Of a stretch of 64,000 nt of DNA, positions 30,901 to 64,000 are shown one piece after another. The first letter of the stretch is position 1. Every line of letters begins with the position of its first letter. The position numbers and the translations under genes were made by a program. Source of the stretch: a virus; the IMG/VR virus record IMGVR_UViG_3300035670_000182; one strand, given 5' to 3'. The notes below the pieces were generated by a model. The model was not told the DNA's origin. It worked only from the letters and a program-made list of their open reading frames with translations, and ran no database searches.

Positions 30901-33900
30901 ATGCCTCAATATCTGCCCTTACCAGACGGTTCATCAGTAACTATTCGGGAGGGCGAGTCTCCCGCACAAGCGTGGGCACGAGCGCAGCAGATGTACCCCG
31001 AGGCTTTCGGGGCAGCCCCAGCAAACAAAGCTGAGTCGGGCTTCATGCCTGCGCTTAAAGCTGGCTACGAAGAACTCAAAGGTAGTACCGCCGCGCTAGC
31101 TGGGCGTGTTGGCATCACCGATATTGACGCCGCCGAAAAGTACCGCGCTGAGCAACAGGCCAAGGCACGCGGCATCTTCAAACCAACCGAAGAATGGGGT
31201 CTAACAAAAGGTCTTGAACTTTTGGGTGGCTCTCTGCCTTACATGGCTGCCCCCTTGGCCGCTGGCGCTGTTGCACCCGCTGGCCTCCCCACGCTCGGCG
31301 CCGCAGGCTTAGCTTCTTTGGCGCAGTTTACCGGCACCAACATTGGCCGCCAGATGGACGAAGGCACTGGTTTGCGAGAAACCAGTCTGGGCGCAGCCGC
31401 TGCCGGCGCCGTGCCTCAAGCCGCGCTTGATCTCATTCCAATGGCGCGTTACATCCCGGGCGTGCGTCAAATCTTTGGGTATGCAGGTAAGAAAATTAGC
31501 GCTGATGCCGCGGAAGAATTGGTCAAGCAAGGCACGGCTAAAGTCATGGCCGACTACGCCAAAGCCACCGGCAAGGCCATGGGCGCCGAAGGCGCAACAG
31601 AAGCTGCGCAGCAATTCATTGAGCGCTTGCAAGCAGGGCTGAACCTTACCGATGAACAAGCCCGTGACGAGTACTGGCAAAGCTTGGTGGGCGGTGCCGT
31701 GCTTGGCGGTGCGTTGGCCCCTGCCGGTCGCGCCATTGAACGCGGACAAATCAAACGCACACAGCAGCAAGAAGCTGAACAGACCGCCCGCAAACAAGCT
31801 TTTGAAGAACGCAAGGCGGCGAAGCTGGCCGAAGAAGAGCGCTTGAAGTCACCTGACTACGCGTTGGAAGTCCAGCAAAAGTATGAGGAGGCCGAAGCCC
31901 AGCGCAAGGCACTTGTTGCCCAGAAGATCAAGGTTGAGAAAGGCTCCGACACCGAGACCGCCGACCGCGCATTCAACAAAGACATCGACATGCAGTTGCG
32001 TGAGTTGTCTAAAACTTTGAAACCGCTGGCTACTGAACAGGCGCGTTTGCGCCCCGTCATCAAGCAAGCGCAAGAAGCCAAGCGACGCGAAGAGATGTCT
32101 CCGATGGAGTACATGCTTGAGCAAACCGGCGAAGTTCCTGCGGCCACCCCGGTCGAGCCCGGCACTATGCCGACGCCTGTTGAGCCAGAAGAAGTCAAGG
32201 TGCCTGAGGCTTTGCAGTTTGCCAAAGCGCAGATTGAAGCTGCCAAGTACAACGAGCTGGAGCCCGGCCCCGACGCATATACCGAGTACCTCATCAAACG
32301 CCCTGACTACGCACGCAAACTGGTGGACACCGTGACGGGCTTGCCCGGTCTGAGCCCCAAAGAAAGCCGCACCGTCTTGAGTCGTTTGCGCTCTGTGCTG
32401 GACTTGCAAGAACGAGAAGCTACCCGTATGGGCGAGGCAGGCACCGCTGCCATGCAACAGCGTTTGAGCACCGTTGAGGCCGAAGAACAAGCCGCGCTGG
32501 AAGCCAGCCGTGAAGCCGAACGCCAAGCCGCCTTGGACGCACAGGCCCAGCAAACAGAAGTGTTGCGTGAACAGCGGATTGCTCCTGAAGTTGAAGGTAT
32601 TCGCCGTTTGGGCAAAGTGCCCGAAGATTCTTTTAGTGCCGCCAATGCCGAGGCTGCCCGCGAACGTATGGCCCAGCGCCGACGCGACGAAGAGCTTGCT
32701 GGACAGTTAGTAGAAACCCTACCTCTGGGCGAAAAGCGCATGGCCCCCGGGCGCATCGAGACTGGCCGCGCCGGTCCAAAAGGTAACCGTAAAGAGCTGT
32801 TGACACAGCTTGCCATTGCGCGCATTACCGACAACCGTGACGCTGCGCAAGAAGCTATCGCTGGACTGCGTGACTTGTCCGCCGCCGATGAAGTGACAGG
32901 CCGTGGCCGCGTTGACGAAGAAACTTTGCAAGCCCTTGGCGCGGGACGCAAACCGCCGTCCATGCAGAGCGAAGCCCAAGCCGAGAAATATGTTGACGAG
33001 CAGAACTTGATCTTTACTGGCCTTGTTCGCCAGTTGGAAAACCGCCGCCGCATGGCAGGCAAACTATCGACGCCCGGCACGTTCCAACAAGATGTGCGTG
33101 ACGCCAAAGAAAAGTATGCTGCCGCGCACATTGCCGAGCTGGAAGCCCGCCGCGAGAGCTTGGGTTTACCCAAAATGGCGGACTGGGAAAAGGGCGAGTC
33201 ACGCGCCCGCGTGATGGAAGCGCTCAACGAGTTGGAAAACCGTTGGGGCCAGATCAAAGGCCGTAAAGCCGAGGCAGGCCAACGCACGTTTGGCGCACCG
33301 ATGGAAGCTGTCAAGGTGCTGCAACAGCAGATGCGCGACAATGTGAACGCGACAATCAACAACGCCATCACGCGTGACATGACACGTCAGACAGAAGAGA
33401 TTAGTACAAAAACTGGCGCGCCCAAAGACACGTATTACTATCAAGATGCCCAAGGCAACGTCGTTGAAGGTAAGAAGTTAGAAATAGAACGCAAACGGGG
33501 GCCGCAGCTTACTGCTGACGAGATCAAACTGCGCGGCGAACCGCGCCGTGCGGCAGACGAGAAAACGGACGCACTTCGCCTTATTGAGCAAGTACTTACT
33601 AACGTGGAACGCCGCACCCGTGCTGTGCCCGTCACAACAGCTAAGCCTACTGCCAAGGTCACTTCGCTTGAAGAGATTGCCAAGCTGTACGAAGTTGAGA
33701 AGACCGGCGGTTTGTCAGAAAAGACCGACCCCGCCACCGTCGAGTTGTTGCAGCAACTGCGCGAAGCATTGCCTGCCTCTACTGACCCAGAGTTTGCAAA
33801 GCTCTCGCGTGAAGTGGCGCAGCGCGTCATGGAAGGCAATTTGCCCAACGCCAACGATGTGCGCGACTTGAACGAAATGATGCAGGCTCAGCGTGATGCT

Positions 33901-36900
33901 GGCCAAAGCGTGACACGTCCCGGTGCTACCCCAGAAGAGTTACGCCGCACCAGCGCTCAACAGCAAGGCGCCCTGTTCCCAGAAGCCGAAGTCATGGTGC
34001 AGCGCGCTACGCCTGCCAACTTCCAACGCTTGCTTGACTCTAAAGATGTGCAAGGCATGCGCCGCGCTATTGCCGAGATGCGTGCCGAGAACACCGCGGT
34101 GTTGCAGCAGCTCAAGAAGTATGTGCCCGACATGCAAAAGTCCATGAAGGCGGCTATTGAGGGGTTGAACAAAGCTCGTGCACAAGTTGCAAAAGCTAAA
34201 GAAATTGCACAGGCCGACTTGATGGAGCCAGCGTGGTACGCCCCTGCCGTACGCGACGTTGTGGAGTACGAGACTGCCTTGCAGTCGTTGCCGTTGGGCA
34301 TCAAGCGTCTCAAAGAAATCCAACCCAAATTGGTTGGCAAAGCTCTTAAAGAGAATAAGCAAGAAATAAAACGTTTGCAAGACGGGCTGAAAGAAGCTCA
34401 AAACAGGGTTGACGGCGCGCGCAAAAAGCTCGACAGCTTGATGACCCAGTACCAAAAAGACGTGGTGCTGCGCCAAGCTACGCAAAACGCCGCCAAGCGT
34501 GCTGTCAAAGCAGAGAAGGCTGCCGCTGAAAAGTTAGCCAGTTTACGCCAGCAAGCCGCACAAGTTGAGGAAAGCCTGCCGCTGGACTCAACAGAGAAAG
34601 CGCTCAAAGAAGCCACGCAAGCTGCGCGTGAGGGCATGGGCCTGCCCGGTCGTCGTCTGGTTAAGGACACTACTGAAATGAAGCGCCGCGCCGCACAGAT
34701 TCGTAGCGGCATGGGCGGTCTTGAAAAGGCGCTGGACAAGGCTAAGAAAGCCAACAAGACCGAAGACGTCGAGCGCTTGCAAAACCGTTTGAACGAGCTG
34801 GAAAACCAGCTCGACTCGTTGTACGAGACCTCACCGGTGGTGGAGACAAAACTCAAAGAAGACGGCGAAGCGTTGCTTGACCAAGCGTTTGAAGACGCGC
34901 AAATTGCCTTAGCGGCAAAGCAACGCGCTGAGCTGGGCATCCCCACGCAGACGCTGGCTGGCCGCCGTGTTGGCCCCGTGGTTAAGAACGTTCGTTCCGG
35001 CCTAAAGTCACAAGCAGGCGAGCGCAAGTCTTTGAGCAGTGCAGCCGACGCTGCCACTGACGCTCTTGTTGCTGCCCGTGCTGAGCGCACAGAGCTTGAG
35101 CGCCGTGAGAACTACCTCAAAGACAACGGCAAGAAAATTCCCGGCGACTTGAAGCAAAAGCTCAAGGATGTTGACGCACGCATCAAAGACGCAACCAAAC
35201 TGGTCAACCAGCTTGCTACCGAGGAACGGGCGGCCCGCAAACTCGTGACCGCAGAAGGCCAGAAGGCTGTTGCCGCTGAGATCAAACGCGCTGATGAAAC
35301 TGGGAGCGTTCCAAATATTGGCACCGATGCAACAGAGACTACTTCTGCACAACAAGACCCGTTAACAGCGGAAGCAAAAGAAGCATTGGAAGACGGGCGT
35401 ATTTTGGACGTTTTGACGGACATTGCAAATAACAGCAAGGTTCCTTTCATTCGTGAAAACGCTGAAAAACTATTAAAGTTTGTTTCGCGTACTCGGATAG
35501 GACTTGCCCCTGATATAACTGTTAATGGGGCTGCTGTCCCCGCCGCTTTTAACTCAGAAGTAAACGCTATTGGTGTTCGCCCCGGCTACGAAACCGAAGC
35601 AAACGTTGTGCACGAGGCAACGCACGCAGCTACCATGCGCGCTTTGGAGGGGCCCGAGTCTTCTCTAAACGCAGATCAACTCGCAGCAAAGCAAGAAATC
35701 ATTGAAATTTTTGAAGCGCTTAAAGCTAAAGGGGTGCTTGAAGGCGAGTACGCGGCTAAAAACGTAAAAGAGTTTGCGTCAGAGGTTCAGTCAAACGCCG
35801 CTTTACGAAAAAAACTAGACACCCAAACACTTTTTGGGTCTACGGCGCTGCGTCGTTTTTTCAATGCTGTAATGCGCCTCATCGGCATGCGTCCAAAATA
35901 CGTTAACAGCGCCGAAGCACAAGCGGTTATTGAACGTTTGTACATGCAATCAGGAAAATTAGCCGCCCCCGCAGCTCCGGCGGGGCAAGCAAAAGCACCC
36001 GGCTTTGAAAATGCACTGGACGTGGCCAGCGAGGTGATCTCGCAGCCAAAAACCATTCGTGAGCGCATCGAAGCAAACCTCGGCTTGGCTTTCCGCACGC
36101 AGTTCTTGGACCGCCTAGCCCCGCTGGAGAAGATTGCCACCGAGTACATGGACAGCTTCAAAGGCACGCAGATGATGTACTACCTACGCATGATGGACCA
36201 GAAAATGTCTTTCGTGCAGCAAGCTGTTGGGCGCGGCGTGCCGCAGCTCAAAGCTATCGAGCGTCCTGACGGCGAGACCGAGTACGTGTTCCAAAGCGAA
36301 GACGGGCCAAACTTGGCCAAGGTTGTTGAGACCTTGAAGAAAACCCCCGGCATGAACGCAGCCGCAGCAAACCAGTTGTTCACGCTCTACTTGGGCGCTA
36401 AGCGTGCTGACCGTGTGGGGTACAACGCTTTGAACTTTGGCGTGTCGGAAGACAAACTGCGCTCAGCCGTGGCTGACATTGAAGCCAACGACGAGGTGCG
36501 TGCCGTGTTCGAGCAAGCCCGCGACGAGTACAACGAGTACAACCGTGACCTGATGAAGTTCATGGAGCAAACCGGTGCGCTCAAGCCTGAGGAAGCAAAG
36601 CGCTTGGCTGAGACCAACGACTACATCCCTTACTACCGCGAAGAAAACGGCAACGCCGTGCTGGTTATTGGTGGCGAAGGCACCTACAAGGTGGGCAACC
36701 TGAAAGACCAACCGCAGCTCAAACAGTTGATTGGTGGCGAAGAGAAGATTCTCGACTTCTTGACCTCTAGCGTGCAGAACACCAGCATGTTGATGGACAT
36801 GGGCCTTCGCAACCAAGCCACTAAGAACGCCATGTTTGAGTTGGTTAACTTAGGCTTTGCTAAGATTCTCAGAGGCGAGACTTCCGGCGACGACATTGTT

Positions 36901-38502
36901 CGTTTCAAGGAAAAGGGCGTGGACAAGTATGTGGCGATTGACGCTGCCGCCTCGGGCATTCCTGCTGAGCTTTTGGTCAAGGGCATGGAAGGTATCCCCG
37001 TCAACAACTCTGCGCTGGTGCAAGCCATGGCCATGCCGGCCACGCTGCTGCGCCGCGCAATCACACTGAGCCCGCTTTACGCAGCACGCCAGTTGTTCCG
37101 TGACTCGGTTGCCGCGCCGCTTTTGTCAGGCGCAGACTTCACGCCAGTCATGGGAGCTTTGAAACAACTAGGAAAGAGTGACACCCGTGAAAAGTTGGAG
37201 AGCCGTGGCATCGTGGGCGGCCAAGTGTTCACTGGCACCAACGAAGATTTGAGCCGCATCCTGAGCGAGTTGCAGTCCGGCAAGATTGGCGTGGGGCAGT
37301 TGATTGCTCGTGCCGAAGCTGTGGCCATGGAAGCAGACGCACTGACCCGCCGCGCCCAGTATGACTCGTACATTGCGCAGGGGTTGTCGGACATGGAAGC
37401 CACGCTCATGTCGCTGGAGTCTATGAACTTCAACCGTCGAGGTTTGTCGCCAAGCATGCGTCTGGCCAGCCAGTTGATTCCGTTCTTCAACGCCCAAGTG
37501 CAGAGTTTGGACGTGCTGTATCGCGCCATGTCAGGCAAGATGCCGATGAACGAGCGTCTGGATATTCAGGGCAAACTCTACCGCCGCGGCGCGTTGCTTG
37601 CCGGTACTGCGGTGGCCTACGCCATGATGATGCGGGACGACGAGGCTTACAAGAACGCTTACCCCGACGAGAAGTACGGCAACTTTTTCGTGCGCTTGCC
37701 CGGACTGGATGAGCCTGTGCGTATCCCCGTGCCGTTTGAAATTGGCTACATCTTCAAGGCGTTGCCTGAGGCCATCGTCAACTCTATGGCCAGCGAAGAG
37801 GGTGCGACCGAGGCGTACAAGGCGTTCAAGAATATCGCCATCCAAACCGTCCCGGGCGGCACATCGCTGTTCTTGCCAGCAGCGATCAAACCGATCGTTG
37901 AGAACGTCACCAACTACTCGTTCTACAGCGGGCGCGGCATCGAGTCCAAGGCCGAAGAGATGCGCCTGCCTGAGTACCGTTTCCGTGACAACACATCGGA
38001 GTTGGCCAAGAGCATTGGGCAGTTGACCGGCACATCGCCGTTGAAGATTGAGAACTTGATTCGTGGCTATACAGGCAGCATGGGCACGGCGCTGGCGCAG
38101 TCGCTGAACTTTGCTATGCCGACCGAGGGCACACCGGAGAAGGCAGCCAAGCGCTTGTCTGACGCCGCAGTGATTGGCCCGCTGTTCCAGCCTAACGACG
38201 CCGGCGGCATCATCGGCGCTACCTACGACCGCGTGGCTGAGATTCAGCAGGTTCAAAAGACCTACAACGAGATGTTGCAGCAAGGCCGCGCAGCCGAAGC
38301 CCGCGCATTCATGCAAGAGCGTTCAGAGGAACTGGCCAAGGCCGCCATCGCTGGCAACGTGCAACAGCAGTTGGGCAGCATCACCAAGGCGATGAACGCG
38401 ATCAAGGCTTCCAACATGCCGCCAGACGAGAAGCGCGAACAGCTCGACCGCATGCAGAAGCTTCGCATTGAAATCGCTAAGAACGCTCGTGGCCTACTCT
38501 AA
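30901..38502 (+). CDS. giant virion protein (2533 aa) with HExxH motif
   Basis: Single uninterrupted ORF. N-terminal third is predicted helical/coiled coil (E/K/A-rich). VVHEATHAATMRALEGPE (nt 35608-35660) fits HExxH plus a downstream Glu. No RNAP motifs A/B/C. Lies at the end of the structural operon, like podovirus internal core/ejection proteins. Weak or absent SD. Confidence 0.6.
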   Translation: MPQYLPLPDGSSVTIREGESPAQAWARAQQMYPEAFGAAPANKAESGFMPALKAGYEELKGSTAALAGRVGITDIDAAEKYRAEQQAKARGIFKPTEEWGLTKGLELLGGSLPYMAAPLAAGAVAPAGLPTLGAAGLASLAQFTGTNIGRQMDEGTGLRETSLGAAAAGAVPQAALDLIPMARYIPGVRQIFGYAGKKISADAAEELVKQGTAKVMADYAKATGKAMGAEGATEAAQQFIERLQAGLNLTDEQARDEYWQSLVGGAVLGGALAPAGRAIERGQIKRTQQQEAEQTARKQAFEERKAAKLAEEERLKSPDYALEVQQKYEEAEAQRKALVAQKIKVEKGSDTETADRAFNKDIDMQLRELSKTLKPLATEQARLRPVIKQAQEAKRREEMSPMEYMLEQTGEVPAATPVEPGTMPTPVEPEEVKVPEALQFAKAQIEAAKYNELEPGPDAYTEYLIKRPDYARKLVDTVTGLPGLSPKESRTVLSRLRSVLDLQEREATRMGEAGTAAMQQRLSTVEAEEQAALEASREAERQAALDAQAQQTEVLREQRIAPEVEGIRRLGKVPEDSFSAANAEAARERMAQRRRDEELAGQLVETLPLGEKRMAPGRIETGRAGPKGNRKELLTQLAIARITDNRDAAQEAIAGLRDLSAADEVTGRGRVDEETLQALGAGRKPPSMQSEAQAEKYVDEQNLIFTGLVRQLENRRRMAGKLSTPGTFQQDVRDAKEKYAAAHIAELEARRESLGLPKMADWEKGESRARVMEALNELENRWGQIKGRKAEAGQRTFGAPMEAVKVLQQQMRDNVNATINNAITRDMTRQTEEISTKTGAPKDTYYYQDAQGNVVEGKKLEIERKRGPQLTADEIKLRGEPRRAADEKTDALRLIEQVLTNVERRTRAVPVTTAKPTAKVTSLEEIAKLYEVEKTGGLSEKTDPATVELLQQLREALPASTDPEFAKLSREVAQRVMEGNLPNANDVRDLNEMMQAQRDAGQSVTRPGATPEELRRTSAQQQGALFPEAEVMVQRATPANFQRLLDSKDVQGMRRAIAEMRAENTAVLQQLKKYVPDMQKSMKAAIEGLNKARAQVAKAKEIAQADLMEPAWYAPAVRDVVEYETALQSLPLGIKRLKEIQPKLVGKALKENKQEIKRLQDGLKEAQNRVDGARKKLDSLMTQYQKDVVLRQATQNAAKRAVKAEKAAAEKLASLRQQAAQVEESLPLDSTEKALKEATQAAREGMGLPGRRLVKDTTEMKRRAAQIRSGMGGLEKALDKAKKANKTEDVERLQNRLNELENQLDSLYETSPVVETKLKEDGEALLDQAFEDAQIALAAKQRAELGIPTQTLAGRRVGPVVKNVRSGLKSQAGERKSLSSAADAATDALVAARAERTELERRENYLKDNGKKIPGDLKQKLKDVDARIKDATKLVNQLATEERAARKLVTAEGQKAVAAEIKRADETGSVPNIGTDATETTSAQQDPLTAEAKEALEDGRILDVLTDIANNSKVPFIRENAEKLLKFVSRTRIGLAPDITVNGAAVPAAFNSEVNAIGVRPGYETEANVVHEATHAATMRALEGPESSLNADQLAAKQEIIEIFEALKAKGVLEGEYAAKNVKEFASEVQSNAALRKKLDTQTLFGSTALRRFFNAVMRLIGMRPKYVNSAEAQAVIERLYMQSGKLAAPAAPAGQAKAPGFENALDVASEVISQPKTIRERIEANLGLAFRTQFLDRLAPLEKIATEYMDSFKGTQMMYYLRMMDQKMSFVQQAVGRGVPQLKAIERPDGETEYVFQSEDGPNLAKVVETLKKTPGMNAAAANQLFTLYLGAKRADRVGYNALNFGVSEDKLRSAVADIEANDEVRAVFEQARDEYNEYNRDLMKFMEQTGALKPEEAKRLAETNDYIPYYREENGNAVLVIGGEGTYKVGNLKDQPQLKQLIGGEEKILDFLTSSVQNTSMLMDMGLRNQATKNAMFELVNLGFAKILRGETSGDDIVRFKEKGVDKYVAIDAAASGIPAELLVKGMEGIPVNNSALVQAMAMPATLLRRAITLSPLYAARQLFRDSVAAPLLSGADFTPVMGALKQLGKSDTREKLESRGIVGGQVFTGTNEDLSRILSELQSGKIGVGQLIARAEAVAMEADALTRRAQYDSYIAQGLSDMEATLMSLESMNFNRRGLSPSMRLASQLIPFFNAQVQSLDVLYRAMSGKMPMNERLDIQGKLYRRGALLAGTAVAYAMMMRDDEAYKNAYPDEKYGNFFVRLPGLDEPVRIPVPFEIGYIFKALPEAIVNSMASEEGATEAYKAFKNIAIQTVPGGTSLFLPAAIKPIVENVTNYSFYSGRGIESKAEEMRLPEYRFRDNTSELAKSIGQLTGTSPLKIENLIRGYTGSMGTALAQSLNFAMPTEGTPEKAAKRLSDAAVIGPLFQPNDAGGIIGATYDRVAEIQQVQKTYNEMLQQGRAAEARAFMQERSEELAKAAIAGNVQQQLGSITKAMNAIKASNMPPDEKREQLDRMQKLRIEIAKNARGLL

Positions 38503-41561: not shown

Positions 41562-41756
41562 TTATTTGAAAAGGTCGAGTTGTTTTTCGTCGCGTGGGGG
41601 GAACTCATCCGATGGGGCCAACGCGGTGAAGCGGCGCAGCAGCTCATGCTGAAACGCCAAGGATAGGCTCTCGGTGCCAAGGATGAGGGCGCAGCGATTG
41701 ATTAGTTCGCTGTTGGTCAGGTTTCGAGGTTGAATGTCTTGCATGTTTTCTTCCAA
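41562..41756 (-). CDS. hypothetical protein
   Basis: 64-aa ORF upstream of the primase gene. Confidence 0.35.
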   Translation of the reverse strand: MEENMQDIQPRNLTNSELINRCALILGTESLSLAFQHELLRRFTALAPSDEFPPRDEKQLDLFK

Positions 41757-41995
41757 GCGTCGTCAGCCGAGTTTGACGACTGCAAAATTTTGAGGAGCAC
41801 TTCTGCGCGTTCGACGTATGCAGGGAAAATATCCTTGCCCAAGAACCAGTTGTACACGGTCTGCCGTGTCACACCCAGCGCTTTGGAAATACGCACTACC
41901 GAGAAGTCGTGATAGATAGCCCAACGCCCGAGCTGGTTGCCCAATGACTTCGGTGTGTCAGCTACGTCGTTGATTATTTTTTGTGAGTAAGGCAT
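41717..41995 (-). CDS. HTH transcriptional regulator (Cro/XRE-like)
   Basis: 92 aa. Helix-turn-helix VRISKALGVTRQTVYNW. Confidence 0.55.
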   Translation of the reverse strand: MPYSQKIINDVADTPKSLGNQLGRWAIYHDFSVVRISKALGVTRQTVYNWFLGKDIFPAYVERAEVLLKILQSSNSADDAWKKTCKTFNLET

Positions 41996-51307: not shown

Positions 51308-51721
51308 TCATGATCTTTTCTCGGTGGATTTTGTAGATGATTTTGGGGTCAGCGCGATCGAAGGGCCACCATTCGCCGCGCTCAATTTTCTCTTTGATGG
51401 TACACCCATTTGCCTCGCTATGGTGCTGACCATGTTGGGACTGAGGTTGAAGTCGATCGCGATCGTCAGGTGCTTCTCCCCTGTGAGCAGGCGCTCTTTT
51501 ATCTGCGCGTTTCGTTGCGTGCGTATCCGCACCTTTTCTACTGCGTGCTGATGTGCTGGTATGTACTTTCGTATTGTTCCCCATAACGCGTCTCCTAGTT
51601 CGTAGGTGTTGAACTTGTGCCCGCACGACAGGCACGCACGGCGTCGCTTATTTACAACGTCGGAGTACATGTCGCGGGTATCAAGCACTGAGGTATGGCC
51701 GTTACACTTCGGGCACTTCAT
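51308..51721 (-). CDS. zinc-ribbon + HTH regulator (NrdR-like N-terminus); possible frameshift
   Basis: MKCPKCNGHT..RRRACLSCGHKF zinc ribbon. HTH-like IAIDFNLSPNMVSTIARQMG. C-terminal 35 aa are low-complexity. The overlapping frame 51285..51635 carries a more protein-like C-terminus that couples to the downstream gene. Confidence 0.45.
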   Translation of the reverse strand: MKCPKCNGHTSVLDTRDMYSDVVNKRRRACLSCGHKFNTYELGDALWGTIRKYIPAHQHAVEKVRIRTQRNAQIKERLLTGEKHLTIAIDFNLSPNMVSTIARQMGVPSKRKLSAANGGPSIALTPKSSTKSTEKRS

Positions 51722-51910: not shown

Positions 51911-51947
51911 CGAAAAAGAACTGACACCCGTCGTTTGACTGTCAGTT
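51911..51947 (-). terminator. stem-loop terminator containing TGACACCCGTC motif
   Basis: GAACTGACA...TGTCAGTTC 9-bp stem followed by UUUUU on the minus transcript. Confidence 0.45.
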
Positions 51948-52028
51948 CACGAACCCCGCCCACAGTGGTCGTCCAGCGGGGGTATCCGGTATAGGCTGGA
52001 ATTGCCGTAACCTTCGTATGGGCGCAAG

Positions 52029-54167: not shown

Positions 54168-54168
54168 A

Positions 54169-56590: not shown

Positions 56591-56649
56591 TGCTCTCTCC
56601 TTTCGCAGAGTGTCGTCGAATGTATGGGTGTTGTCAAGTGCTAGACAAG

Positions 56650-56916
56650 TTAGTGGACACTCTCGGTCGGCGCCTCATCCAGCTTCAGCCGCACCAAGTT
56701 AAGCGTCTCGCGTAGGCTTGCGATCACTCGATCATCAACCTCGTGACCACCGGCGTCGAGTAGTTGGCAGAACAGCCAGCCCGCCGCGCCAAGAAAGCAA
56801 GCGTCTTCGATGCGCTCGACACCTGTTGCGGCGTGCTTCTCTGCCACCTTAAATAGCGCTTCGCTCATAGCCTCGCGCATGTCCACCATGATTTTGTATT
56901 GGTCTTTGATACTCAT
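56650..56916 (-). CDS. hypothetical protein
   Basis: 88-aa ORF. Confidence 0.35.
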   Translation of the reverse strand: MSIKDQYKIMVDMREAMSEALFKVAEKHAATGVERIEDACFLGAAGWLFCQLLDAGGHEVDDRVIASLRETLNLVRLKLDEAPTESVH

Positions 56917-57461
56917 TTGTTTTCTCCTTTGTTAAACATCCAATCGCGCACCTCGAATGTAGGCACACGCACGCCGTTGACAGACGGCTCCAATATCAGC
57001 GACACCTCCGACACCTGCGGCCCTTCGAAGAACAGCACCTGCGTATCACGCCCAAAGTAGATCGAGTGAATCTCGTCGTGCTTCATGCTGTACCACTCGC
57101 CTTGCGTGTGCATGTTGTCTTGATAGCCCCACTCAGTCTCGCCCACAATCTTCACATCGGGGTACTCGCCTATCTTTGTGAACTTATGTGCGCTCACGAA
57201 GTAATTGTCACGCGAACCAGCAACGCAGTGTTGCGCGGGTAGCCATATGCGCTGGCGCACGCTCCCCTTCAAAACCAAGCAGGTGAAGTCAAAGCGATGA
57301 CTGTGCGGCGTGATGCTGTGTTGTTGCGCTCGATCATGCGTGAACATGCGAACCTTGCCGTTAGTCAGCAGGTGGCTTGTCAGACCGGGGATGATGTAGT
57401 TATGCAACTCGCTTGCTTTCATGCTGTTGATAACGCTGATGGATTCCTCAGGAATTTTCAT
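56913..57461 (-). CDS. cupin-like protein (tentative)
   Basis: 182 aa. PHSHRFDFTCLVLKG resembles cupin motif 1. Adjacent to the amidoligase/GATase pair. Confidence 0.35.
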   Translation of the reverse strand: MKIPEESISVINSMKASELHNYIIPGLTSHLLTNGKVRMFTHDRAQQHSITPHSHRFDFTCLVLKGSVRQRIWLPAQHCVAGSRDNYFVSAHKFTKIGEYPDVKIVGETEWGYQDNMHTQGEWYSMKHDEIHSIYFGRDTQVLFFEGPQVSEVSLILEPSVNGVRVPTFEVRDWMFNKGENK

Positions 57462-57756
57462 TTAGTTTCTCCTTCTTACATTTGTACACTCTATACCAGT
57501 CGCCGGGGAACCCGAACAAAGCCTGCATTACGCTTGACTTAACTGGAACGAACCCGCCATAGTATTTGCGGCGGCCAAACCCGTAGCGTTTGCGGGTGCG
57601 TTGGTGGAACCAGTGAGTCAGCACCTTGTTGTCCTCTGACGCCCACTCAGGGAAGCGCACTTGTATGCGCTTGTACTTGGTGGCTATGACTTCACCTAGC
57701 ACACGCCGTCCCCATTTGCCGTCATAGCAGACATAGCATTTATCTCCGCGTTTCAT
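57448..57756 (-). CDS. hypothetical basic protein
   Basis: 102-aa ORF directly downstream of the terminator/repeat element. Confidence 0.35.
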   Translation of the reverse strand: MKRGDKCYVCYDGKWGRRVLGEVIATKYKRIQVRFPEWASEDNKVLTHWFHQRTRKRYGFGRRKYYGGFVPVKSSVMQALFGFPGDWYRVYKCKKEKLNENS

Positions 57757-57778
57757 TTTGTTTCTCCAAAAAATAAAA

Positions 57779-57824
57779 GGGGGTCACCTGACCCCCTACA
57801 AATGACACCCGTCAAAGAGCGCCA
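57779..57824 (-). terminator. palindromic repeat element copy 1 (GGGGGTCACCTGACCCCC + TGACACCCGTCAA) acting as terminator
   Basis: On the minus transcript: stop codon, GACGGGTGTCA, hairpin GGGGGUCAGGUGACCCCC, then UUUUAUUUUUU. Confidence 0.55.
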
Positions 57825-59056
57825 GCGTTGGCTACGAACGCCTCAGCTTCAGCGCGCGCGTCAGCCTCGTCCTCCACGATGCCATCGTCATCACCGTCAG
57901 AGCCGTCACCCACGGGGTCTTGCTCGCCCTCATCGACCAGCTCGTACCAGTAGCAGTAGTAGCAGAACACCTCAGCCATTACGCTTGCACTCTTGCCCTC
58001 GTGGATGAAGTCGTGCATCGCCGCCACATCACCGTCAATAGCCGCTTGAAAGATCTCGGCCTCGAAGCCTGTCATGTCTTCGGCTTTTGCGTGTGCTGGT
58101 GTTGCAAGGTAATACTTGAAGATAGTGTTGATAGTTGTGATAGGGAATGTGCTAAGGCAAGCAGTGAGTGATTCCACATCTGCATCAAGAAGATACTCGA
58201 GCAGAGCGCCCGCCTCAGCCGCATTGCACGCCACATCAGCGTCAACGCCATCAATCACCTCGCCCTTGGCCTCGATCACACCGTCCTCGTTAGCATCGGC
58301 ATGGTGCGCGCTCTTGGCATACGACAGCGCGGCTTGTGGGTGTTGCGACTTGCCAGTCACATCGTAGTCTTTGAAGCCGTAGTAGTCGTTCTCGTCGTCC
58401 CAGCCACCCATACCCATGTGGCCACCGAAAGCCCATGACTTGTGCTTGCGGCCATACTTGTTGGAATAGTAGTGAGGGATGAGTTTGCTAGGCGACCATG
58501 CATAGGTATTGCTGAACCACATGCCGTCATGCTCGATGCCTTGGTCGTGATTGACATGGGACATGCGACCGGCACCATCCATGAACACAAAGCGATTGTC
58601 ACCGATGAACTCAGCGACCATCGTGAGATAGCCTGTGTCGTGAATCAACTCAGGATACTTGTGCACAGAGTCAGACAAGTAGTCGTTGATGAAGTGGAAT
58701 GTGTCGCTACGCGCCTTGTCTGCATCGTTGCCTGTGTGCAAGACACCGTTGTGCATCATGGCGATATAGCCGGGCACCACATCATATGGGTGACAGTTGT
58801 CGAGGTTAGTGTGACCGTGTGTAGTCCAGCGGAAGTGAATAGCCACATCACGATCATCCGTGGGCATGCGCTGAATCATGTTAGTCGCTTCACCGAGGTT
58901 GCGAGGCAGAGACTTGACGACCTTCAACCCCTTGGCTGTGCCATACATGATGCCGATGCCATCGGGGTTTGAGTCGAAGATGTCTGCAAGCAGAGCGTGA
59001 GTGTTGAGCAAAGTAGAACGAACTTTTGCGGCGTTGCCAGTAATGATGAGACACAT
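57812..59056 (-). CDS. class-II glutamine amidotransferase (Ntn-hydrolase) domain protein
   Basis: Begins MCLIITG, Cys at position 2 as the Ntn nucleophile. HFRWTTHG and MHNGVLHTGN match the GATase-II R..T.G and HNG motifs. Acidic C-terminal tail. Confidence 0.6.
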   Translation of the reverse strand: MCLIITGNAAKVRSTLLNTHALLADIFDSNPDGIGIMYGTAKGLKVVKSLPRNLGEATNMIQRMPTDDRDVAIHFRWTTHGHTNLDNCHPYDVVPGYIAMMHNGVLHTGNDADKARSDTFHFINDYLSDSVHKYPELIHDTGYLTMVAEFIGDNRFVFMDGAGRMSHVNHDQGIEHDGMWFSNTYAWSPSKLIPHYYSNKYGRKHKSWAFGGHMGMGGWDDENDYYGFKDYDVTGKSQHPQAALSYAKSAHHADANEDGVIEAKGEVIDGVDADVACNAAEAGALLEYLLDADVESLTACLSTFPITTINTIFKYYLATPAHAKAEDMTGFEAEIFQAAIDGDVAAMHDFIHEGKSASVMAEVFCYYCYWYELVDEGEQDPVGDGSDGDDDGIVEDEADARAEAEAFVANAGAL

Positions 59057-59270
59057 AGTAAATACTCCTGATTAAATGAATGAAGGGTTGGTTGATGAGA
59101 AAACAATTTCACGGCGCAGTTGACGCGCCATGTTGGTGGCCTCCGCATGGCCACGCGGGTCGCCGCGCTGGGCGCATCGTGTAGCTTCGGCAAGGGCCGC
59201 TCGGTAGCGCTCGTGCAGAGACGCCCCTGTGGGTCGAGGTGGGGGTTGGAATTCCTCGCGTATACGCCGG

Positions 59271-61214
59271 TCAAAGACGCCCCCTTGCGCGGGCCACATC
59301 GCGCGGTTCGGCAGTCACGGCCTCGGGTGCAGGTGTTGCATCAGGGCATGAGTCTTGAACCGGTGGGACAACAGGCTTGGCGGCTTTCTTGCGGCGCACG
59401 CCATACCAGTCAGACAAGTGAGGGTAGACATTCTGCGTAGTAGATAGCCACGCCACGAACGAATCGCCGTTGAGGTTGCGCCACGATGCAACACGACAGA
59501 ACATAACGACAGCGTGTGTGAACTCCATCTGTGCAAGTAGTCGCGCCTTGTTAAGCGTTGCGCGGAAGATGCGAAGCTCGACTGTGTTGTATCGACCATA
59601 TGTCTCAGGCAGACCGAGACGCTTGCACTCACGAGCACTGAGGTTCTGTGTGTTGATGATGCGATAGCGCTCAGTCGATTTGCCTTTGACTGCTGTGCTT
59701 GGATTAACAAGGATGTGTTGTTGCTCAGCGGCACAATACTCACGCGCTTGGTTGTCGTGCAGTGGATGACGGCCAGCGATCTTGCGAATGAAGTCAGCGT
59801 TTGAATCGGCGTTGAAGAACATAAAGAACTTGCCGAGAGTCATACGCGAGAAGCCACGCGAGTCGATGTGAATGTGCATGCCGCACTTCTTGGCGTCCCA
59901 TGCACGATAGCCACTAGGAACATCCCACGCTTTGAACTGCTTGATGTGGTGGTCTAGCTTGCGTGGTGCAGTAACGATCTCGATGCCGTCATCGGGCAAT
60001 GAACCGTCATACTTACACACAACATAGTCTTCACCAAGGGATGAGCGAATACCCTCGACTGCTTGACGCTGGCTACGGTCACCGATGCCGATCTCCAACT
60101 CGATACCCATGAGCAACTCGCCGTATGGTGAGGGCGTGAACGAAGTGTCTTTGTTGAGGTGGTTGAGCACATTGGTGGAGTAGTCCATCATGCTGTTAGC
60201 GTCTTCGCCGTCGTCCTCTGGCTCAGGCTCAGGCTCAGGCGTCAAGTGATACTCCTGATCGCTATCCCAGTAGTACACATTGTCACAGTGGTACATCTCG
60301 TCATCATCTACGCACCGCACTGCATACTCGTCGTAACACTCCTCGCAGTACGAAGTGTCTTGAATATGGTGCACATTGGCAGAGTGCTCGAAGTGGCCGC
60401 AATCAGGCCGCATGACTTGCAAGCGTATGTTGAACTTACGGCGCAGATGGTCTCTAACTTTCTCGAATGTGTCCACATGCGTTAAACTGCGTCCGCTAAA
60501 GTTCTCAAGGATGAATGTATCAAGGTACTCTGTAGACTCAGACGCGATGCACTGGCGTACCTGCTCACCAAGCAGCTTCATTGTTTTGCGTATTTGCTTG
60601 AACCGAGACAAGTCGCTGCCGTAGGCAAGATCGGAGTAATCTTGCCCCTTGTATGAGATAACACCGGCCATTCGCGAGGCCCCGATGCGTCTGGCACCTC
60701 CGTAGTTAGCGCGGTTGTACAAAAGCTCAGAGGCGCGGCCTAGTATTTTGATTGTGGTACCAGACATGCCTTCGCAGGGGCGATTGGCCATGCCGCTGAG
60801 CAACTCGTGCATACTGATTGCTTGCTCTTTGATGTAGCGCTCGATAGCGAACTCACGAATCATTGGCTTACGGCGCACGCGCTGTACAGGCTCGTGCCAC
60901 TCTCTACGAAACTCATAGCTAAAGTAAGGCCTGTCGTTGTATGACTCACAAGCGCTTTGGATTTTGTTGATGTAGTCATCAACGCTATTGGCCACAAGCA
61001 CACCGCGAGCCTCTGCGGTCATATCCATACGACCGTTCACGCCCATGTTGCTATTGCGATGCATTGCGTAGTAGAACTTGCCGATGTTGAGCACCGCGAT
61101 GCGGTTGTGCGTTGATATGAGACGATCGACACCCTCGCCGCCCTCGAGGTCAAAGACTTGGTTGTATTGTGTCCCTGTCTCAGGTGTGATGAAGTTTACA
61201 AAGTAAATACGCAT
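59271..61214 (-). CDS. amidoligase (glutamine-synthetase-like, Amidoligase_2) with N-terminal Cys/His-rich domain
   Basis: C-terminal half carries GIELEIGIG, DGSLPDDGIEIVTAP, CGMHIHID and NTVELRIF, matching the Amidoligase_2 motif series (from memory). N-terminal half has a Cys/His cluster. Acidic PEPEPEPEDDGED linker. Confidence 0.6.
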   Translation of the reverse strand: MRIYFVNFITPETGTQYNQVFDLEGGEGVDRLISTHNRIAVLNIGKFYYAMHRNSNMGVNGRMDMTAEARGVLVANSVDDYINKIQSACESYNDRPYFSYEFRREWHEPVQRVRRKPMIREFAIERYIKEQAISMHELLSGMANRPCEGMSGTTIKILGRASELLYNRANYGGARRIGASRMAGVISYKGQDYSDLAYGSDLSRFKQIRKTMKLLGEQVRQCIASESTEYLDTFILENFSGRSLTHVDTFEKVRDHLRRKFNIRLQVMRPDCGHFEHSANVHHIQDTSYCEECYDEYAVRCVDDDEMYHCDNVYYWDSDQEYHLTPEPEPEPEDDGEDANSMMDYSTNVLNHLNKDTSFTPSPYGELLMGIELEIGIGDRSQRQAVEGIRSSLGEDYVVCKYDGSLPDDGIEIVTAPRKLDHHIKQFKAWDVPSGYRAWDAKKCGMHIHIDSRGFSRMTLGKFFMFFNADSNADFIRKIAGRHPLHDNQAREYCAAEQQHILVNPSTAVKGKSTERYRIINTQNLSARECKRLGLPETYGRYNTVELRIFRATLNKARLLAQMEFTHAVVMFCRVASWRNLNGDSFVAWLSTTQNVYPHLSDWYGVRRKKAAKPVVPPVQDSCPDATPAPEAVTAEPRDVARARGRL

Positions 61215-61249
61215 TTCATTTCTCCAGTTAAAACGGTGACTTTAGGATT

Positions 61250-61320
61250 GGGGGTCACCTGACCCCGTTGCGTGGGAGAGTCCCCCCACATACAAAAAGA
61301 GCTGACACCCGTCAAGATGC
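61250..61320 (-). repeat. palindromic repeat element copy 2
   Basis: GGGGGTCACCTGACCCC plus TGACACCCGTCAA overlapping the stop of 61312..61659. A GAGCTG...CAGCTC stem followed by TTTTTG on the minus strand. Confidence 0.5.
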
Positions 61321-61659
61321 CAGCTCCTCAGGTATTTCGATGTTGTCGCCTAGCTTTGATGCAACGAAGCACCGCATGGCGGCGATGAGTGGTGTTGTGC
61401 CTGTTATTGGTTTGCCCGGGCCAAAACGAATAGCCACCCAATCGGCACTTCTTGGCAGAATCTGAATTTTCTCCCTCTCAATGATCGGCCCGCCTTGCGC
61501 CCAGTTGGTTGATGGGCTATACACCCAAGACAAGTCACCTCTCTCCTCCATGACGGTGTTCTTGTGGTCGATGTAGTAATCAAATTCCGGCTCGCCTTCT
61601 TGATTCGCGCGGGCCACCGCCCAGTCAAGTGCGGCGCCTGTCAGTTCATTTGTTTTCAT
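61312..61659 (-). CDS. NinX-like (DUF2591) protein
   Basis: MKTNELTGAALDWAVARA... N-terminus as in NinX/DUF2591 phage proteins (from memory). Confidence 0.4.
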   Translation of the reverse strand: MKTNELTGAALDWAVARANQEGEPEFDYYIDHKNTVMEERGDLSWVYSPSTNWAQGGPIIEREKIQILPRSADWVAIRFGPGKPITGTTPLIAAMRCFVASKLGDNIEIPEELAS

Positions 61660-61988
61660 ACGGTCAACTCCTTATCGGTTGTAGTTTCTTCGGGTTCATC
61701 TAGGCGCGGGATGGGTCGCAGGCAGTCGTCAGCGAAGGGGCGCGCTTTGAACAGCCGGACTTCTTTGGTTCCAGCGGCTGTCCATGCGAGAGGTGCCCCG
61801 TGACTGCGTATGACCCACACAAAGGCGCCCCTAAATGCATCCTCGTGTAGTCGCCACGCTGGACGGCCTTCTATGGGAAAAAATTCATCTCCGACTACAT
61901 AAGGGCGCACCACTTCTACGATCTTGCCTATGTTTTCGGGCAGGGTAGCCCGCACGATGATTGCCAAGTCGCCTTGCTTGCAGTTCAT
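61656..61988 (-). CDS. hypothetical protein
   Basis: 110-aa ORF, ATGA-coupled. Confidence 0.35.
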   Translation of the reverse strand: MNCKQGDLAIIVRATLPENIGKIVEVVRPYVVGDEFFPIEGRPAWRLHEDAFRGAFVWVIRSHGAPLAWTAAGTKEVRLFKARPFADDCLRPIPRLDEPEETTTDKELTV

Positions 61989-62159
61989 ACACCTTCTCCT
62001 TTGCTAACAGTCCATCCGAACTTGCGGTAGTACTTGATCTCTGTCTCGAAAGCGTGGTTGTAGTCGGCGTCACCTTTCTTATATCCATACGCTTGCAAGT
62101 TGGCTTCGACTCGCCGCACTAGCGGCATCTGTTCTTTGAGTAGTTCATGTGCGGTCATT
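61983..62159 (-). CDS. small hypothetical protein (58 aa)
   Basis: SD GAGGAGAA. MTAHELLKEQMPLV... Not in the ORF track. Confidence 0.3.
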
Positions 62160-62191
62160 GCAGTTCTCCTCAGCGTGTCTGTGTGGTTTTC

Positions 62192-62311
62192 TCATTTCAT
62201 TTCCCCCTCGATGCGGTCTGCCGCCATGATGAGTAGCATCTTCAGTGCTATGTTGTCCGCGCTTTGCGCCGCTGTGCGTAGCGTTGCGGCTAGTTCTTTG
62301 TCTGTCATCAT
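62192..62311 (-). CDS. small hypothetical protein (39 aa)
   Basis: Start set at MMTDKE with SD AGGAGAAAG. The longer track ORF reads through the palindromic repeat and is unlikely. Confidence 0.25.
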   Translation of the reverse strand: MMTDKELAATLRTAAQSADNIALKMLLIMAADRIEGEMK

Positions 62312-62376
62312 GATCTTTCTCCTATCAGGCCAGTTGATAAAAGGTTTGCGTGTGGCCAAGTCCCGCAAACTTTGAA

Positions 62377-62428
62377 GGGGGTCACCTGACCCCCTTGACA
62401 CCCGTCAAAGAGCGCCCTCGCGCTCTTT
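62377..62428 (-). repeat. palindromic repeat element copy 3
   Basis: GGGGGTCACCTGACCCCC plus TGACACCCGTCAA overlapping the stop of 62405..63166, plus an AAGAGCGC..GCGCTCTT palindrome. Confidence 0.5.
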
Positions 62429-63166
62429 CCAATAGTTCGCTAAATAAAACCCACTCCATGTTGGAGGCAGGTCTGTGCCTTCCTCGGCCTCGCGTATCCA
62501 CGCAAGGGCTTGCTTTATCTTGGCTATGGTGCGTGTCGCTTTTTCCATGCGCTCGTCGCTATCGGCAAGTCGTGCCTTGTTGTATATGACACCGGCCATG
62601 ACCAACTCTTTCTCGGTGCGCTTGAGTAGGCGTGCGTGACGCTTTGCCCAGTCACTCTTTGGTATGGTGCGCTCGAAAGGCAGCTTGCGCTTAGCCCCTC
62701 GCTTATGGGGTATCGCATTGAATAGGTCGATCACCTCTTGCCGGTCGTCATCGTCTACCCAATCAGTCCAGTGCATGCCTTTGTTCTTAGCCTCTACCTC
62801 AAGCGCCAGCTTTGTAGGCGTCATGCCTTTGCGCCGCTTTGCCAGTGAAAGGTGAGAAATGAGGGTGGCGATAACCTCTCGATAGCGTGTGAGGGCGACG
62901 ATTCGGGGGTCACCTGACCCCGCTGGATATTTCAGCATGCGCTCGACCAGTCGCAACTCATACTTGGCAGGGTCTAAGATTTCTCGCCATGTTTTGTCGA
63001 GCTGAAACTTGGTGCCTCGTGCCACGCGTAGTGCGTGCCGCTGTGCTTCAACCACTTTGATGATGTGCTCTGCCGCTTCGGGGTGGCGGCGTAGCTTCTT
63101 GAAATGCTCACGAATCTGGTTGTCATTCATGTGCATGTAGTGCCGATACTGTAAACGCATAGTCAT
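62405..63166 (-). CDS. early protein, hypothetical (253 aa)
   Basis: First long ORF downstream of the AT-rich regulatory region. Contains an in-frame copy of the palindromic repeat at 62905-62921. Confidence 0.4.
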   Translation of the reverse strand: MTMRLQYRHYMHMNDNQIREHFKKLRRHPEAAEHIIKVVEAQRHALRVARGTKFQLDKTWREILDPAKYELRLVERMLKYPAGSGDPRIVALTRYREVIATLISHLSLAKRRKGMTPTKLALEVEAKNKGMHWTDWVDDDDRQEVIDLFNAIPHKRGAKRKLPFERTIPKSDWAKRHARLLKRTEKELVMAGVIYNKARLADSDERMEKATRTIAKIKQALAWIREAEEGTDLPPTWSGFYLANYWKEREGAL

Positions 63167-63169
63167 TTC

Positions 63170-63560
63170 TCACTTTCAAAAACAGGAATGGGACGATTTT
63201 ATATGAAGTATCCAATGATTTCTAGAAAAGGGCTACCAACACGGACACCTCGCAGGCCGCATGAAGCCTAGATAAAAAGGTCAACTGTCCGAAATTAATA
63301 TCTTTGTGCCGCAATGCAACAAGGCAAGCCACAAAAAACAAGAAAGAATAAAGACGCGAAAGAACACACATATATAAATACTCCCCCTTATATATATACA
63401 TAAATAAAAAGATATATTATTAGGACGATTCGCCAAAATTTCTAGGGTTCATGCGGGCTAGCAGGTGTCCGAGTTGGGGCACGCCCTGCGAAATCCACAC
63501 CTACCTAGAAAAACCGCGATTTAACCTTGTTTTGAAATGTGAGAAATCATTAGGGGGTCG
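63170..63560 (-). promoter_or_regulatory. AT-rich early regulatory region with CTAG-containing palindromes
   Basis: About 390 bp with no ORF. Strongly AT-rich blocks (63370-63420). TTTCTAGAAA palindrome (63222-63231). TTTCTAGG / CCTAGAAA inverted pair (63441-63448 / 63498-63505). GCTAGC (63463-63468). Several sigma70-like TTGACN/TATAAA hexamers on the minus strand. Confidence 0.45.
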
Positions 63561-63587
63561 CTTGACCCCCTTCGCCCTCACTTGAAC
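63553..63587 (-). repeat. palindromic repeat element copy 5 (GGGGGTCGCTTGACCCCC + TCACTTGAAC)
   Basis: Hairpin immediately 3' of gene 63578..63823. The TCACTTGAAC part encodes that gene's stop and last residues. Confidence 0.45.
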
Positions 63588-63823
63588 AGCTTGGTTTGCA
63601 CTGGTGCTTGCATGGATTCGAGCCACGCCTCGAATGCGGCTTCGCCTGTTAAGCATAGGCCACGGCTTGCGCCCTTGCGGTACACATTGACCATGAAGTA
63701 GTCTTTGTGCGCTTTGCCCAAGGGGTAGTAGTACATGATGTTGAACTCGCCGTGAATGGGTAGGCTGAGTGTGCCCATGTGCTTGATGCTTGGGGTGTTG
63801 GCAAGTGTTGAGAGGTTACGCAT
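63578..63823 (-). CDS. hypothetical early protein
   Basis: 81 aa from ATG 63823 with SD AGGAGA. The longer track ORF reads through the upstream hairpin. C-terminus ...TKLFK resembles that of the partial gene at the window edge. Confidence 0.4.
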   Translation of the reverse strand: MRNLSTLANTPSIKHMGTLSLPIHGEFNIMYYYPLGKAHKDYFMVNVYRKGASRGLCLTGEAAFEAWLESMQAPVQTKLFK

Positions 63824-63908
63824 GATTGATTCTCCTGAGAAATGATTGATAGACACGAAATGAAACAGCGGCCAGCCCTCGCAGGCAGAGCCGCCGCAAA
63901 TTTTCAAA

Positions 63909-63936
63909 GGGGTCAAGTGACCCCGTTCACTTGAAC
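63909..63936 (-). repeat. palindromic repeat element copy 6 (GGGGTCAAGTGACCCC + TCACTTGAAC)
   Basis: Same architecture as copy 5, directly 3' of the partial gene. Confidence 0.45.
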
Positions 63937-64000
63937 TGCACTGATGCGCGAAGCTGAGAAATCAGCGCATCGAACTCGGCTTTGGTCAAGCCAGCGTCAA
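63927..64000 (-). CDS. partial CDS (C-terminal end only; continues beyond window)
   Basis: Open frame to the window edge ending ...LRASVQFK-stop. The tail is paralogous to that of 63578..63823. Confidence 0.3.
   Translation of the reverse strand, partial: DAGLTKAEFDALISQLRASVQFK

Follow-up and report, generated by a model that had tools for sequence, protein, structure and literature searches.

A lineage-specific hairpin family in the early operon of an uncultured phage clade and its possible reader, the product of the first early gene

The 64,000-nucleotide stretch of viral DNA considered here (IMG/VR record IMGVR_UViG_3300035670_000182; the whole stretch is called the window) holds most of a phage contig of about 66 kb and contains a family of short palindromes of the form GGGGTCA-NN-TGACCCC. 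Comparison with related contigs suggests that these palindromes form a hairpin signal, particular to each lineage, that marks gene boundaries along the first ~8 kb of the early operon in an uncultured clade of phages of about 65 kb, and that the signal may be read, at the RNA level, by the protein encoded by the first early gene (gene 1). We give this reading nearly an even chance of being right. The clade-wide system appears to be previously undescribed, and the mechanism that we propose for it is drawn from comparative data.

We searched the window for the exact pattern GGGGTCA-N(1-4)-TGACCCC, for the relaxed pattern GGGTC-N4-GACCC, and with up to 3 mismatches allowed. GGGGTCA-NN-TGACCCC was present exactly at five sites (57780-95, 61251-66, 62378-93, 62906-21 and 63909-24), against no match in 100 shuffles, and the relaxed pattern recovered a sixth copy, GGGGTCGCTTGACCCC, at 63554-69. 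All six had been picked out in an earlier sequence-only reading of this DNA, and their positions are confirmed here. That reading had assigned a 3-nucleotide (nt) spacer to the fifth copy; since the relaxed pattern recovers it as GGGGTCGCTTGACCCC, the common form is instead a stem of 6-7 base pairs (bp) with a 4-nt loop. No further copy was found in the 64 kb with 3 mismatches allowed, and neither the relaxed pattern nor GGGGTC-N4-GACCCC, which covers all six copies, matched exactly anywhere else in the window; relatives carry their own stem versions at syntenic sites. Every gene from 38.6 kb to the window end lies on the minus strand, so that each intergenic copy is ordered stop codon, hairpin, ribosome site, ATG; the earlier description of the element holds apart from its bookkeeping of strands and a claim of paralogy that is taken up below. 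The local folds that contain the window copies have minimum free energies of −11.8 to −47.8 kcal/mol and GC-rich stems of 6-10 bp. Among the six, a clean U-tract follows the stem at 57780-95 alone, as had been noticed before; the other five lack one. An Rfam search of 50000-64000 returned no family at E values up to 5.

The window ends within gene 1. The beginning of the operon was recovered from a Logan contig, L100, whose sequence is the same as that of the window end. In sense-strand order it has seven tRNA genes, then an extended −10 promoter and a 5′ leader hairpin, and after these a seventh copy of the palindrome and the first early gene (L100 1759-2163), which encodes 134 amino acids (aa). 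This seventh copy (P1), GGGGTCAGTTGACCCC followed by TTTTCTTTTT, lies just past the window end, ~40 nt downstream of the host-type extended −10 promoter and 21 nt ahead of the gene 1 ATG, and it carries a U-tract. With the operon start placed in this way, the palindromes take up the first ~8 kb of the early operon.

With the amidoligase-like protein as anchor, we recovered 80 related loci among viral contigs and several more in other assemblies. These relatives came from an alignment-based scan; single-protein scans of viral contigs gave none. Nearly every relative locus contains 4-10 copies of one perfect hairpin of its own. From 58 loci we obtained 297 unique copies with at least 13 stem types (GGGTCA, GGGACA, GGGGAC, GGGAGA, GGGAAA, GGGAAC, GGGGAG, GAGAGA, GGAGAA, GGGTAG, GGAGAG, GGGGTA and GGGGTC). 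The anatomy is the same throughout: the base of the stem, a G-run facing a C-run, is constant, the upper 2-3 pairs vary between types, and the loop of 2-4 nt is free. The positions are syntenic, with copies before gene 1 (P1), after gene 1 (P2), before an AT-rich palindromic region (P3), inside a gene of ~250 aa, after that gene (P4), before the amidoligase-like gene (P5) and after a gene for a class-II glutamine amidotransferase (GATase)-like protein (P6). In the loci of the relatives we counted 313 copies in 576 kb of early operon versus none in the 231 kb upstream of the early leader, which consists of late-gene, tRNA and non-coding sequence.

Two observations bear on how the stems change. 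The collinear loci L030 and L069 have 88-95% nucleotide identity in the sequence flanking four hairpin positions, and yet all six copies read GGGGAAA..TTTCCCC in L030 and GGGGACA..TGTCCCC in L069, a paired change of A to C on one arm and of T to G on the other. In three deep lineages the copy within the open reading frame (ORF) falls in a homologous loop of the ~250-aa protein (..Y-x-x-G-[hairpin]-P..), each time with the stem of its own genome, so that the encoded peptide is rewritten as AGSGDP, GEKVSP, GELVPQ or SGQRDP. In the window this is the copy at 62906-21, which does lie in frame in the 253-aa ORF, as had been proposed. Taken together, the scarcity of U-tracts, the concerted paired change and the stem-matched copy within the ORF call for selection both for pairing or symmetry and for sameness within a genome. 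A reader acting in trans would be the simplest cause of such paired, genome-uniform stem change.

To look for such a reader we grouped the ORFs from all loci into clusters and set the identity of the proteins in each cluster against stem type. For gene 1, the mean identity was 0.60 between loci of the same stem type versus 0.22 between loci of different type, and no cross-type pair exceeded 0.72; all of the other 21 conserved early clusters, including clusters comparably diverged overall, had cross-type pairs at 0.88-1.0. When pairs were matched for identity of the 250-aa gene, gene 1 was more diverged where the stem types differ. The gene 1 proteins of L030 and L069 are 49% identical. Between this phage and L017, which share a stem type, gene 1 is 97% identical, against 39% for the 250-aa gene, 78% for the amidoligase and 69% for the GATase. 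As judged from these identities, the gene 1 product is the single protein with which stem type goes along. Since the stem version follows the gene 1 sequence, the hairpin is probably the private recognition site of the gene 1 protein and not an ordinary terminator, and the 134-aa orphan encoded by gene 1 is probably a sequence-specific hairpin reader. The sequence-only reading had suggested two other binders, the helix-turn-helix proteins encoded at 41717..41995 and 51308..51721. We found no supporting evidence for either, the latter is an NrdR-like zinc-ribbon protein, and the stem co-varies with the first early gene instead. Its broader view, that most copies are not canonical terminators but a specifically recognised repeat, is supported by the genome-specific stems, the concerted compensatory changes, the conserved copy within the ORF and the presence of U-tracts in only about one-third of copies.

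The N-terminal domain of gene 1 falls into three sequence classes that match three hairpin classes, and a C-terminal motif of ~35 aa (..IIDAGLTKAQFDALLAQLR.SV.F.) is common to all of them. It is possible, though we rate it rather short of an even chance, that gene 1 represents an unrecognised family of nucleic-acid readers, in which the variable N-terminal domain would read a 2-3 bp code in the upper stem. At least 13 protein/hairpin specificities would then have co-evolved, giving each phage private termination/read-through or roadblock signals that reach into coding sequence. Such a family would amount to a natural library of orthogonal protein–hairpin switches.

Features of the element and of its surroundings bear on whether it acts as RNA or as DNA. 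Counting a copy as having a U-tract when 5 or more of the 8 nt that follow the stem are T, we found one in 31% of 291 copies clade-wide, with shares of 67% at P5, 58% at P6, 13-31% at P1-P4 and 0% among in-gene copies. Five features speak for the RNA level: stems extend beyond the core by at least 2 pairs in 22% of copies versus 6% expected; the spacer varies between 2 and 3 nt in a single genome (L052); the attachment of U-tracts and A-tracts depends on the syntenic position; the copies are limited to one transcription unit; and neighbouring helper hairpins include G·U pairs that form only on the sense strand. In imperfect copies nearly all mismatches fall at the innermost pair, as A·C or T·T, and the bias between G·U and A·C is uninformative on RNA versus DNA. 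Overall, RNA-level action, in the form of conditional termination, read-through or 3′-end definition under control of the gene 1 protein, seems most likely, with a DNA operator or roadblock as a strong rival.

In the mechanism that we propose, the gene 1 protein would recognise the hairpin, most likely on nascent RNA. Copies with a U-tract (57780-95 and the leader copy P1) would serve as conditional terminators or attenuators, and copies without one as loading, pause or mRNA 3′-end sites, so that the first early protein would time read-through and the expression of successive early cistrons. The logic would be like that of lambda N with boxB, but with specificity in the stem and many sites per operon. 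In lambda-type nut sites the boxB hairpin is read by the N antiterminator, and lambda, P22 and phi21 have phage-specific N/boxB pairs. As in that system, the leader that precedes gene 1 contains a short hairpin here, and a second one follows gene 1, 12 nt before a terminator-like hairpin; its sequence is the lineage's own, and the candidate reader is the first early gene product. In contrast to nut, which provides one site, there are at least 7 sites per operon here, specificity lies in the stem while the loop is free and even reversible, gene 1 lacks an arginine-rich N-terminus, and some copies carry a U-tract. A boxA-like sequence, CGCTCTTTGAC, is found at just two of the six window sites and at one site in L017, and most relatives lack it. 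A boxA plus boxB nut site was rejected: at its three sites CGCTCTTTGAC is also the 5′ arm of a G·U-containing hairpin and encodes the last codons, and it is not conserved in the clade.

If the proposed reader is real, the clade offers a natural case of a regulator and its many cis sites shifting specificity together, with intermediates and recombinants still visible in metagenomes, and a regulatory site that is held at one spot in a protein-coding loop while its sequence is rewritten. It would also account for the organisation of early gene expression in a large group of freshwater phages that are uncultured, and would supply short, mutually orthogonal hairpin/protein pairs. Should the proposed gene 1 reader fail, the element would still be a well-defined comparative marker of module boundaries in this phage group.

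Several points weigh against this proposal. The gene 1 protein has no match in Pfam, PHROG or PDB, and its single-sequence model (predicted local distance difference test score, pLDDT, 74) gave no significant fold match. Gene 1 sits between two copies and is the fastest-evolving early gene, so that part of the association with stem type could reflect linkage and rate. Some pairs of loci (L046/L052, L068/L071 and L054/L064), with amidoligase regions 97-100% identical and left early modules of differing hairpin type, appear to be recent recombinants that carry mixed stem types; with such mixtures, as in L046/L052 and L068/L071, strict stem matching is not essential. The combination of an invariant stem and a free loop suits a site for a dimer on double-stranded DNA better than an RNA hairpin read by a protein. 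The same is true of the loops, which are often reverse-complementary within one genome (aaac/gttt in L078, cag/ctg in L091, tt/aa in L041), and of the innermost A..T, which is kept even with a 2-nt spacer, where pairing is impossible.

The palindromes might instead be double-stranded DNA operators for a dimer of the gene 1 protein or of another phage regulator, acting as a roadblock or looping repressor that shuts off or paces the early operon. We regard this as unlikely, yet it accounts well for the invariant arms, the variable and reversible centre and the retained innermost A/T, and a dimer would impose symmetric change on both half-sites. The leader copy lies at about +40 from the early promoter, copies flank the AT-rich promoter- or origin-like region, and the gene 1 model has the order helix-helix-helix-beta-hairpin, with MarR, MexR and SSV1 F-93 as top Foldseek hits, none of them significant. 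Such operators would be the symmetric analogue of mycobacteriophage stoperators or of KorB-type global operators. In Cluster A mycobacteriophages the stoperators, which are bound by the L5 gp71 repressor and act in lysogeny, are 13-mers without symmetry that share one orientation and span the genome. They share with the present element the many copies of a short site in short operon gaps and a single phage protein affecting elongation (here only a candidate), but the sites in our clade are palindromic. The nearest described analogue is the 17-bp palindrome TGTTCGG-NNN-CCGAACA of Cluster O mycobacteriophages, present in more than 30 copies genome-wide and suspected by its authors to be the site of a dimeric protein (PMC4351075). 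Both elements combine invariant arms (7 bp in Cluster O) with a variable centre (2-4 nt here), occur in both orientations, lie mostly between genes with a few inside them, and show indels between copies. In Cluster O, however, one sequence serves the whole cluster and no stem-variant family or co-varying protein is described, whereas here 7 copies are all confined to the first ~8 kb of the early operon. Against the operator explanation stand the 2-3 nt spacer within L052, flanks that are not conserved and still pair above chance, the position-specific U-tracts and A-tracts, and the absence of copies both from the 231 kb that precede the early leader in the relatives and from all other parts of the 64-kb window.

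It is also conceivable, if improbable, that the hairpins are ordinary terminators or attenuators together with 3′-end stabilisers of processed mRNAs, operating with no trans factor, kept uniform through copy-and-paste and short-patch recombination, and serving as cassette exchange points in the manner of PeSL elements. GC-rich stems directly after stop codons, and U-tracts in ~31% of copies and 58-67% of those at P5 and P6, are what this explanation expects. With intrinsic terminators the element shares the GC-rich hairpin after a stop codon and, at 57780-95 and P1, a U-tract. Exchange of cargo is seen in L002, where homology resumes exactly at 61251-66 and the NinX-like gene has been replaced by other cargo. 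This is the one clear case of a copy at the border of a replacement between relatives. The suggestion of a recombination hotspot finds weak support in the frequency of homology breakpoints within 25 nt of a hairpin, 13% versus 4.4% at random, an enrichment that is confounded by the intergenic location of the hairpins. Mixed-type recombinants do exist. Unselected homogenisation of 16-nt palindromes nevertheless fails to explain the same double substitution at six sites in 95%-identical flanks, and a stem-matched in-gene copy without a U-tract and the exclusive tracking of stem type with gene 1 are left unexplained. Unlike the stem-loops of intrinsic terminators, five of the six window copies have no U-tract, one lies in an ORF, and the stem is the same in all copies and changes in concert. 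The PeSL cassettes of T4-type phages are composites of a conserved early promoter and a stem-loop (PMC2839356, PMC4122927). They resemble the present element in being repeated stem-loops between early genes of unknown function, and may have in common with it a link to gene replacement between relatives; however, no sigma-70-like promoter stands beside any copy here, and neither concerted stem switching nor protein tracking is reported for PeSLs.

Very improbably, the hairpins could be signals in single-stranded DNA, either N4-type promoters that an injected RNA polymerase would use, or sites of priming or initiation grouped round an origin at the AT-rich palindrome. N4-like early promoters are short-stem hairpins of lineage-specific sequence, comparable to the 6-7 bp stem, short loop and lineage-own sequence here; a virion-type protein of 2533 aa is encoded at 30901..38502; copies lie within a few kb of the conserved AT-rich palindromic region; and mismatches in imperfect copies and base flanks would more often be G·T wobbles on the antisense strand. 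This explanation is countered by the host-type extended −10 promoter ahead of the leader, by copies directly after stop codons and one within an ORF, by copies 5.5 kb from the AT-rich region, and by the giant protein itself, which has HExxH and LPD38 features and no RNA polymerase motifs; N4-like hairpin promoters were rejected as no virion RNA polymerase was found, the 2533-aa protein having no polymerase match in PDB or Pfam. REP/RAYT or another mobile element was rejected as well, with no Y1 (HUH) transposase-like protein found and the flanked 253-aa protein being all-helical and without a match. The element is not assigned here to the nut, N4-promoter, PeSL, stoperator or REP classes, because a defining feature of each was looked for and was not found.

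Table 1. Features of the hairpin family and its surroundings (window coordinates; all readings of sequence are for the sense strand of the early operon where marked)
Feature	Position	Strand	Remarks
First early gene, 3′ end	63928..64000	-	last 23 codons and stop at 63928-63999; full 134-aa gene in L100
P2 copy	63909..63924	-	3 nt past stop of first early gene
Non-family GC-rich hairpin, terminator-like	63865..63897	-	GCGGCGGCU...GGCCGCUG then UUUCAUUUC; 12 nt downstream of P2
Early gene, 81 aa	63578..63823	-	between P2 and P3
P3 copy	63554..63569	-	sense GGGGTCAAGCGACCCC; innermost pair an A·C mismatch; 8 nt past 81-aa gene stop; directly before AT-rich palindromic region
AT-rich imperfect palindrome, ~390 bp	63160..63552	.	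(TA)n centre; between P3 and 253-aa ORF; arms 63236-63305 / 63408-63477 and 63160-84 / 63528-52
Orphan ORF, 253 aa	62405..63166	-	all-helical; cluster c2; hosts in-gene hairpin
In-gene copy	62906..62921	-	in frame in 253-aa ORF; encodes ..A-G-S-G-D-P..; no U-tract
Second motif	62396..62406	-	overlaps 253-aa ORF stop codon
P4 copy	62378..62393	-	stem extended to 10 bp (AAGGGGGTCA / TGACCCCCTT); 11 nt past 253-aa ORF stop
Conserved hairpin 3′ of P4	62345..62369	-	stem co-varies in clade; loop conserved, CUUGGCCA here, UUGGGCAAU in most relatives
Intrinsic terminator, canonical	61296..61329	-	12-15 bp stem then UUUUUGU; 3′ of NinX-like gene
Second motif	61303..61313	-	3′ arm of long-stem terminator 61296-61329
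P5 copy	61251..61266	-	36 nt 5′ of amidoligase-like ATG at 61214; no U-tract; ~30 nt downstream of separate long-stem terminator
Amidoligase-like gene, 647 aa	59271..61214	-	anchor for finding relatives
GATase-like gene, class II, 414 aa	57812..59056	-	
Second motif	57803..57813	-	overlaps GATase-like gene stop; pairs with upstream GGCGCUC through G·U pairs
P6 copy	57780..57795	-	after GATase-like gene; sense AGGGGGTCAGGTGACCCCCT then TTTATTTTTT, GGAG, ATG at 57756; canonical U-tract
Related terminator	51913..51948	-	GAACTGACA...TGTCAGTTC then TTTTT; holds fourth second-motif copy as 3′ arm of long stem

A second motif accompanies the palindromes (Table 1). TGACACCCGTC occurs exactly at 51922, 57803, 61303 and 62396 of the window and reads T-TGA-CGGGTGTCA on the sense strand, where the TGA, the complement of TCA within ...CGTCAA, serves as stop codon in three different genes. 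As had been said of two unrelated proteins, those of 414 aa and 253 aa both end in GAL-stop, and the third gene, in which the TGA is followed by the same sequence, proves to be the NinX-like 115-aa gene, with CGGGTGTCA after its stop. The fourth copy is located, as had been stated, within the terminator at 51.9 kb. Two genes ending in FK-stop had been called paralogous; this was not upheld, since BLASTP between them gave E = 3.9 and they have in common only a C-terminal motif of ~20 aa.

The surrounding helper hairpins also recur in the clade. Counterparts of the hairpin at 63865..63897 in relatives read CACCGCAAG..CTTGCGGTG TTTCA. The hairpin after P4 is found in the 65 nt that follow P4 in 45 loci. 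After it come CACCAUCC and, immediately ahead of the next ribosome site, a short stretch that could pair with the loop; a pseudoknot between this loop and the sequence before the next ribosome site was not significant in comparison with shuffles. Across loci (L019, L020, L062, L078, L084, L096 and others) ACGGGTGTC has 39 occurrences on the sense strand and none on the antisense strand. It is usually found directly 3′ of a TGA or TAA stop codon and 0-40 nt ahead of a family hairpin, irrespective of stem type, and it often forms the 3′ arm of a G·U-containing hairpin with the end of the upstream gene. The combination of UGA-CGG with a downstream hairpin is familiar from the read-through signals of eukaryotic viruses. 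A stop-codon read-through signal of this kind was considered and dropped because the extension peptides are not conserved.

The 253-aa protein that hosts the in-gene copy gave no Pfam hit and no sequence or fold match. Its C-terminal extension, ..ANYWKEREGAL (62405-62440), is absent from homologues and is encoded by a perfect 9-bp hairpin, AAAGAGCGC-GAGG-GCGCTCTTT, together with the shared repeat module, so that the repeat supplies the last residues and the stop codon of the protein. The start codon of this ORF sits within one arm of the AT-rich palindrome. The architecture of that palindrome, with arms of 24-135 nt and an AT-rich centre, is also seen in L017, L011, L015 and L035, and the region 63160-63552 is a candidate replication origin or bidirectional promoter region.

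As regards the phage as a whole, the plus strand carries structural genes from 1 to 38.5 kb, and the minus strand carries replication and early genes, including those for a family A DNA polymerase, an SNF2-type helicase, a primase-helicase and the amidoligase-like and GATase-like pair. A search of isolated phages found no close relative, the DNA polymerase being only ~30% identical to those of Pseudomonas KPP25/phiR18 and Rhizobium RHph_TM3_14A. The amidoligase-like and GATase-like genes (57812-61214) adjoin each other, are kept clade-wide and have more than 200 homologues; they may constitute a modification pathway. The seven tRNA genes of L100 (Glu, Trp, Ser, Asn, His, Tyr and Pro; L100 271-921, just past position 64000) have the small terminase gene on one side and the early promoter on the other and are encoded on the opposite strand to the early operon, and the same arrangement is present in L017. 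The 2533-aa protein is mostly predicted coiled coil, has its HExxH metalloprotease motif near residue 1572 and its LPD38 domain at the C-terminus, and is probably an injected polyvalent protein. The 137-aa protein encoded at 51308-51721, just downstream (in the sense direction) of the 51.9-kb terminator, has its NrdR-like zinc ribbon in the N-terminal domain (Pfam E = 1.8e-13). Finally, a 23-nt repeat, GTCATGTGTTCTTCTCCTTGAGT, is present at 53174-53196, 53625-53647 and 53987-54009 as two identical copies and one 74% copy. Three small minus-strand genes follow one another here, and each has a copy across its ribosome site and start codon.

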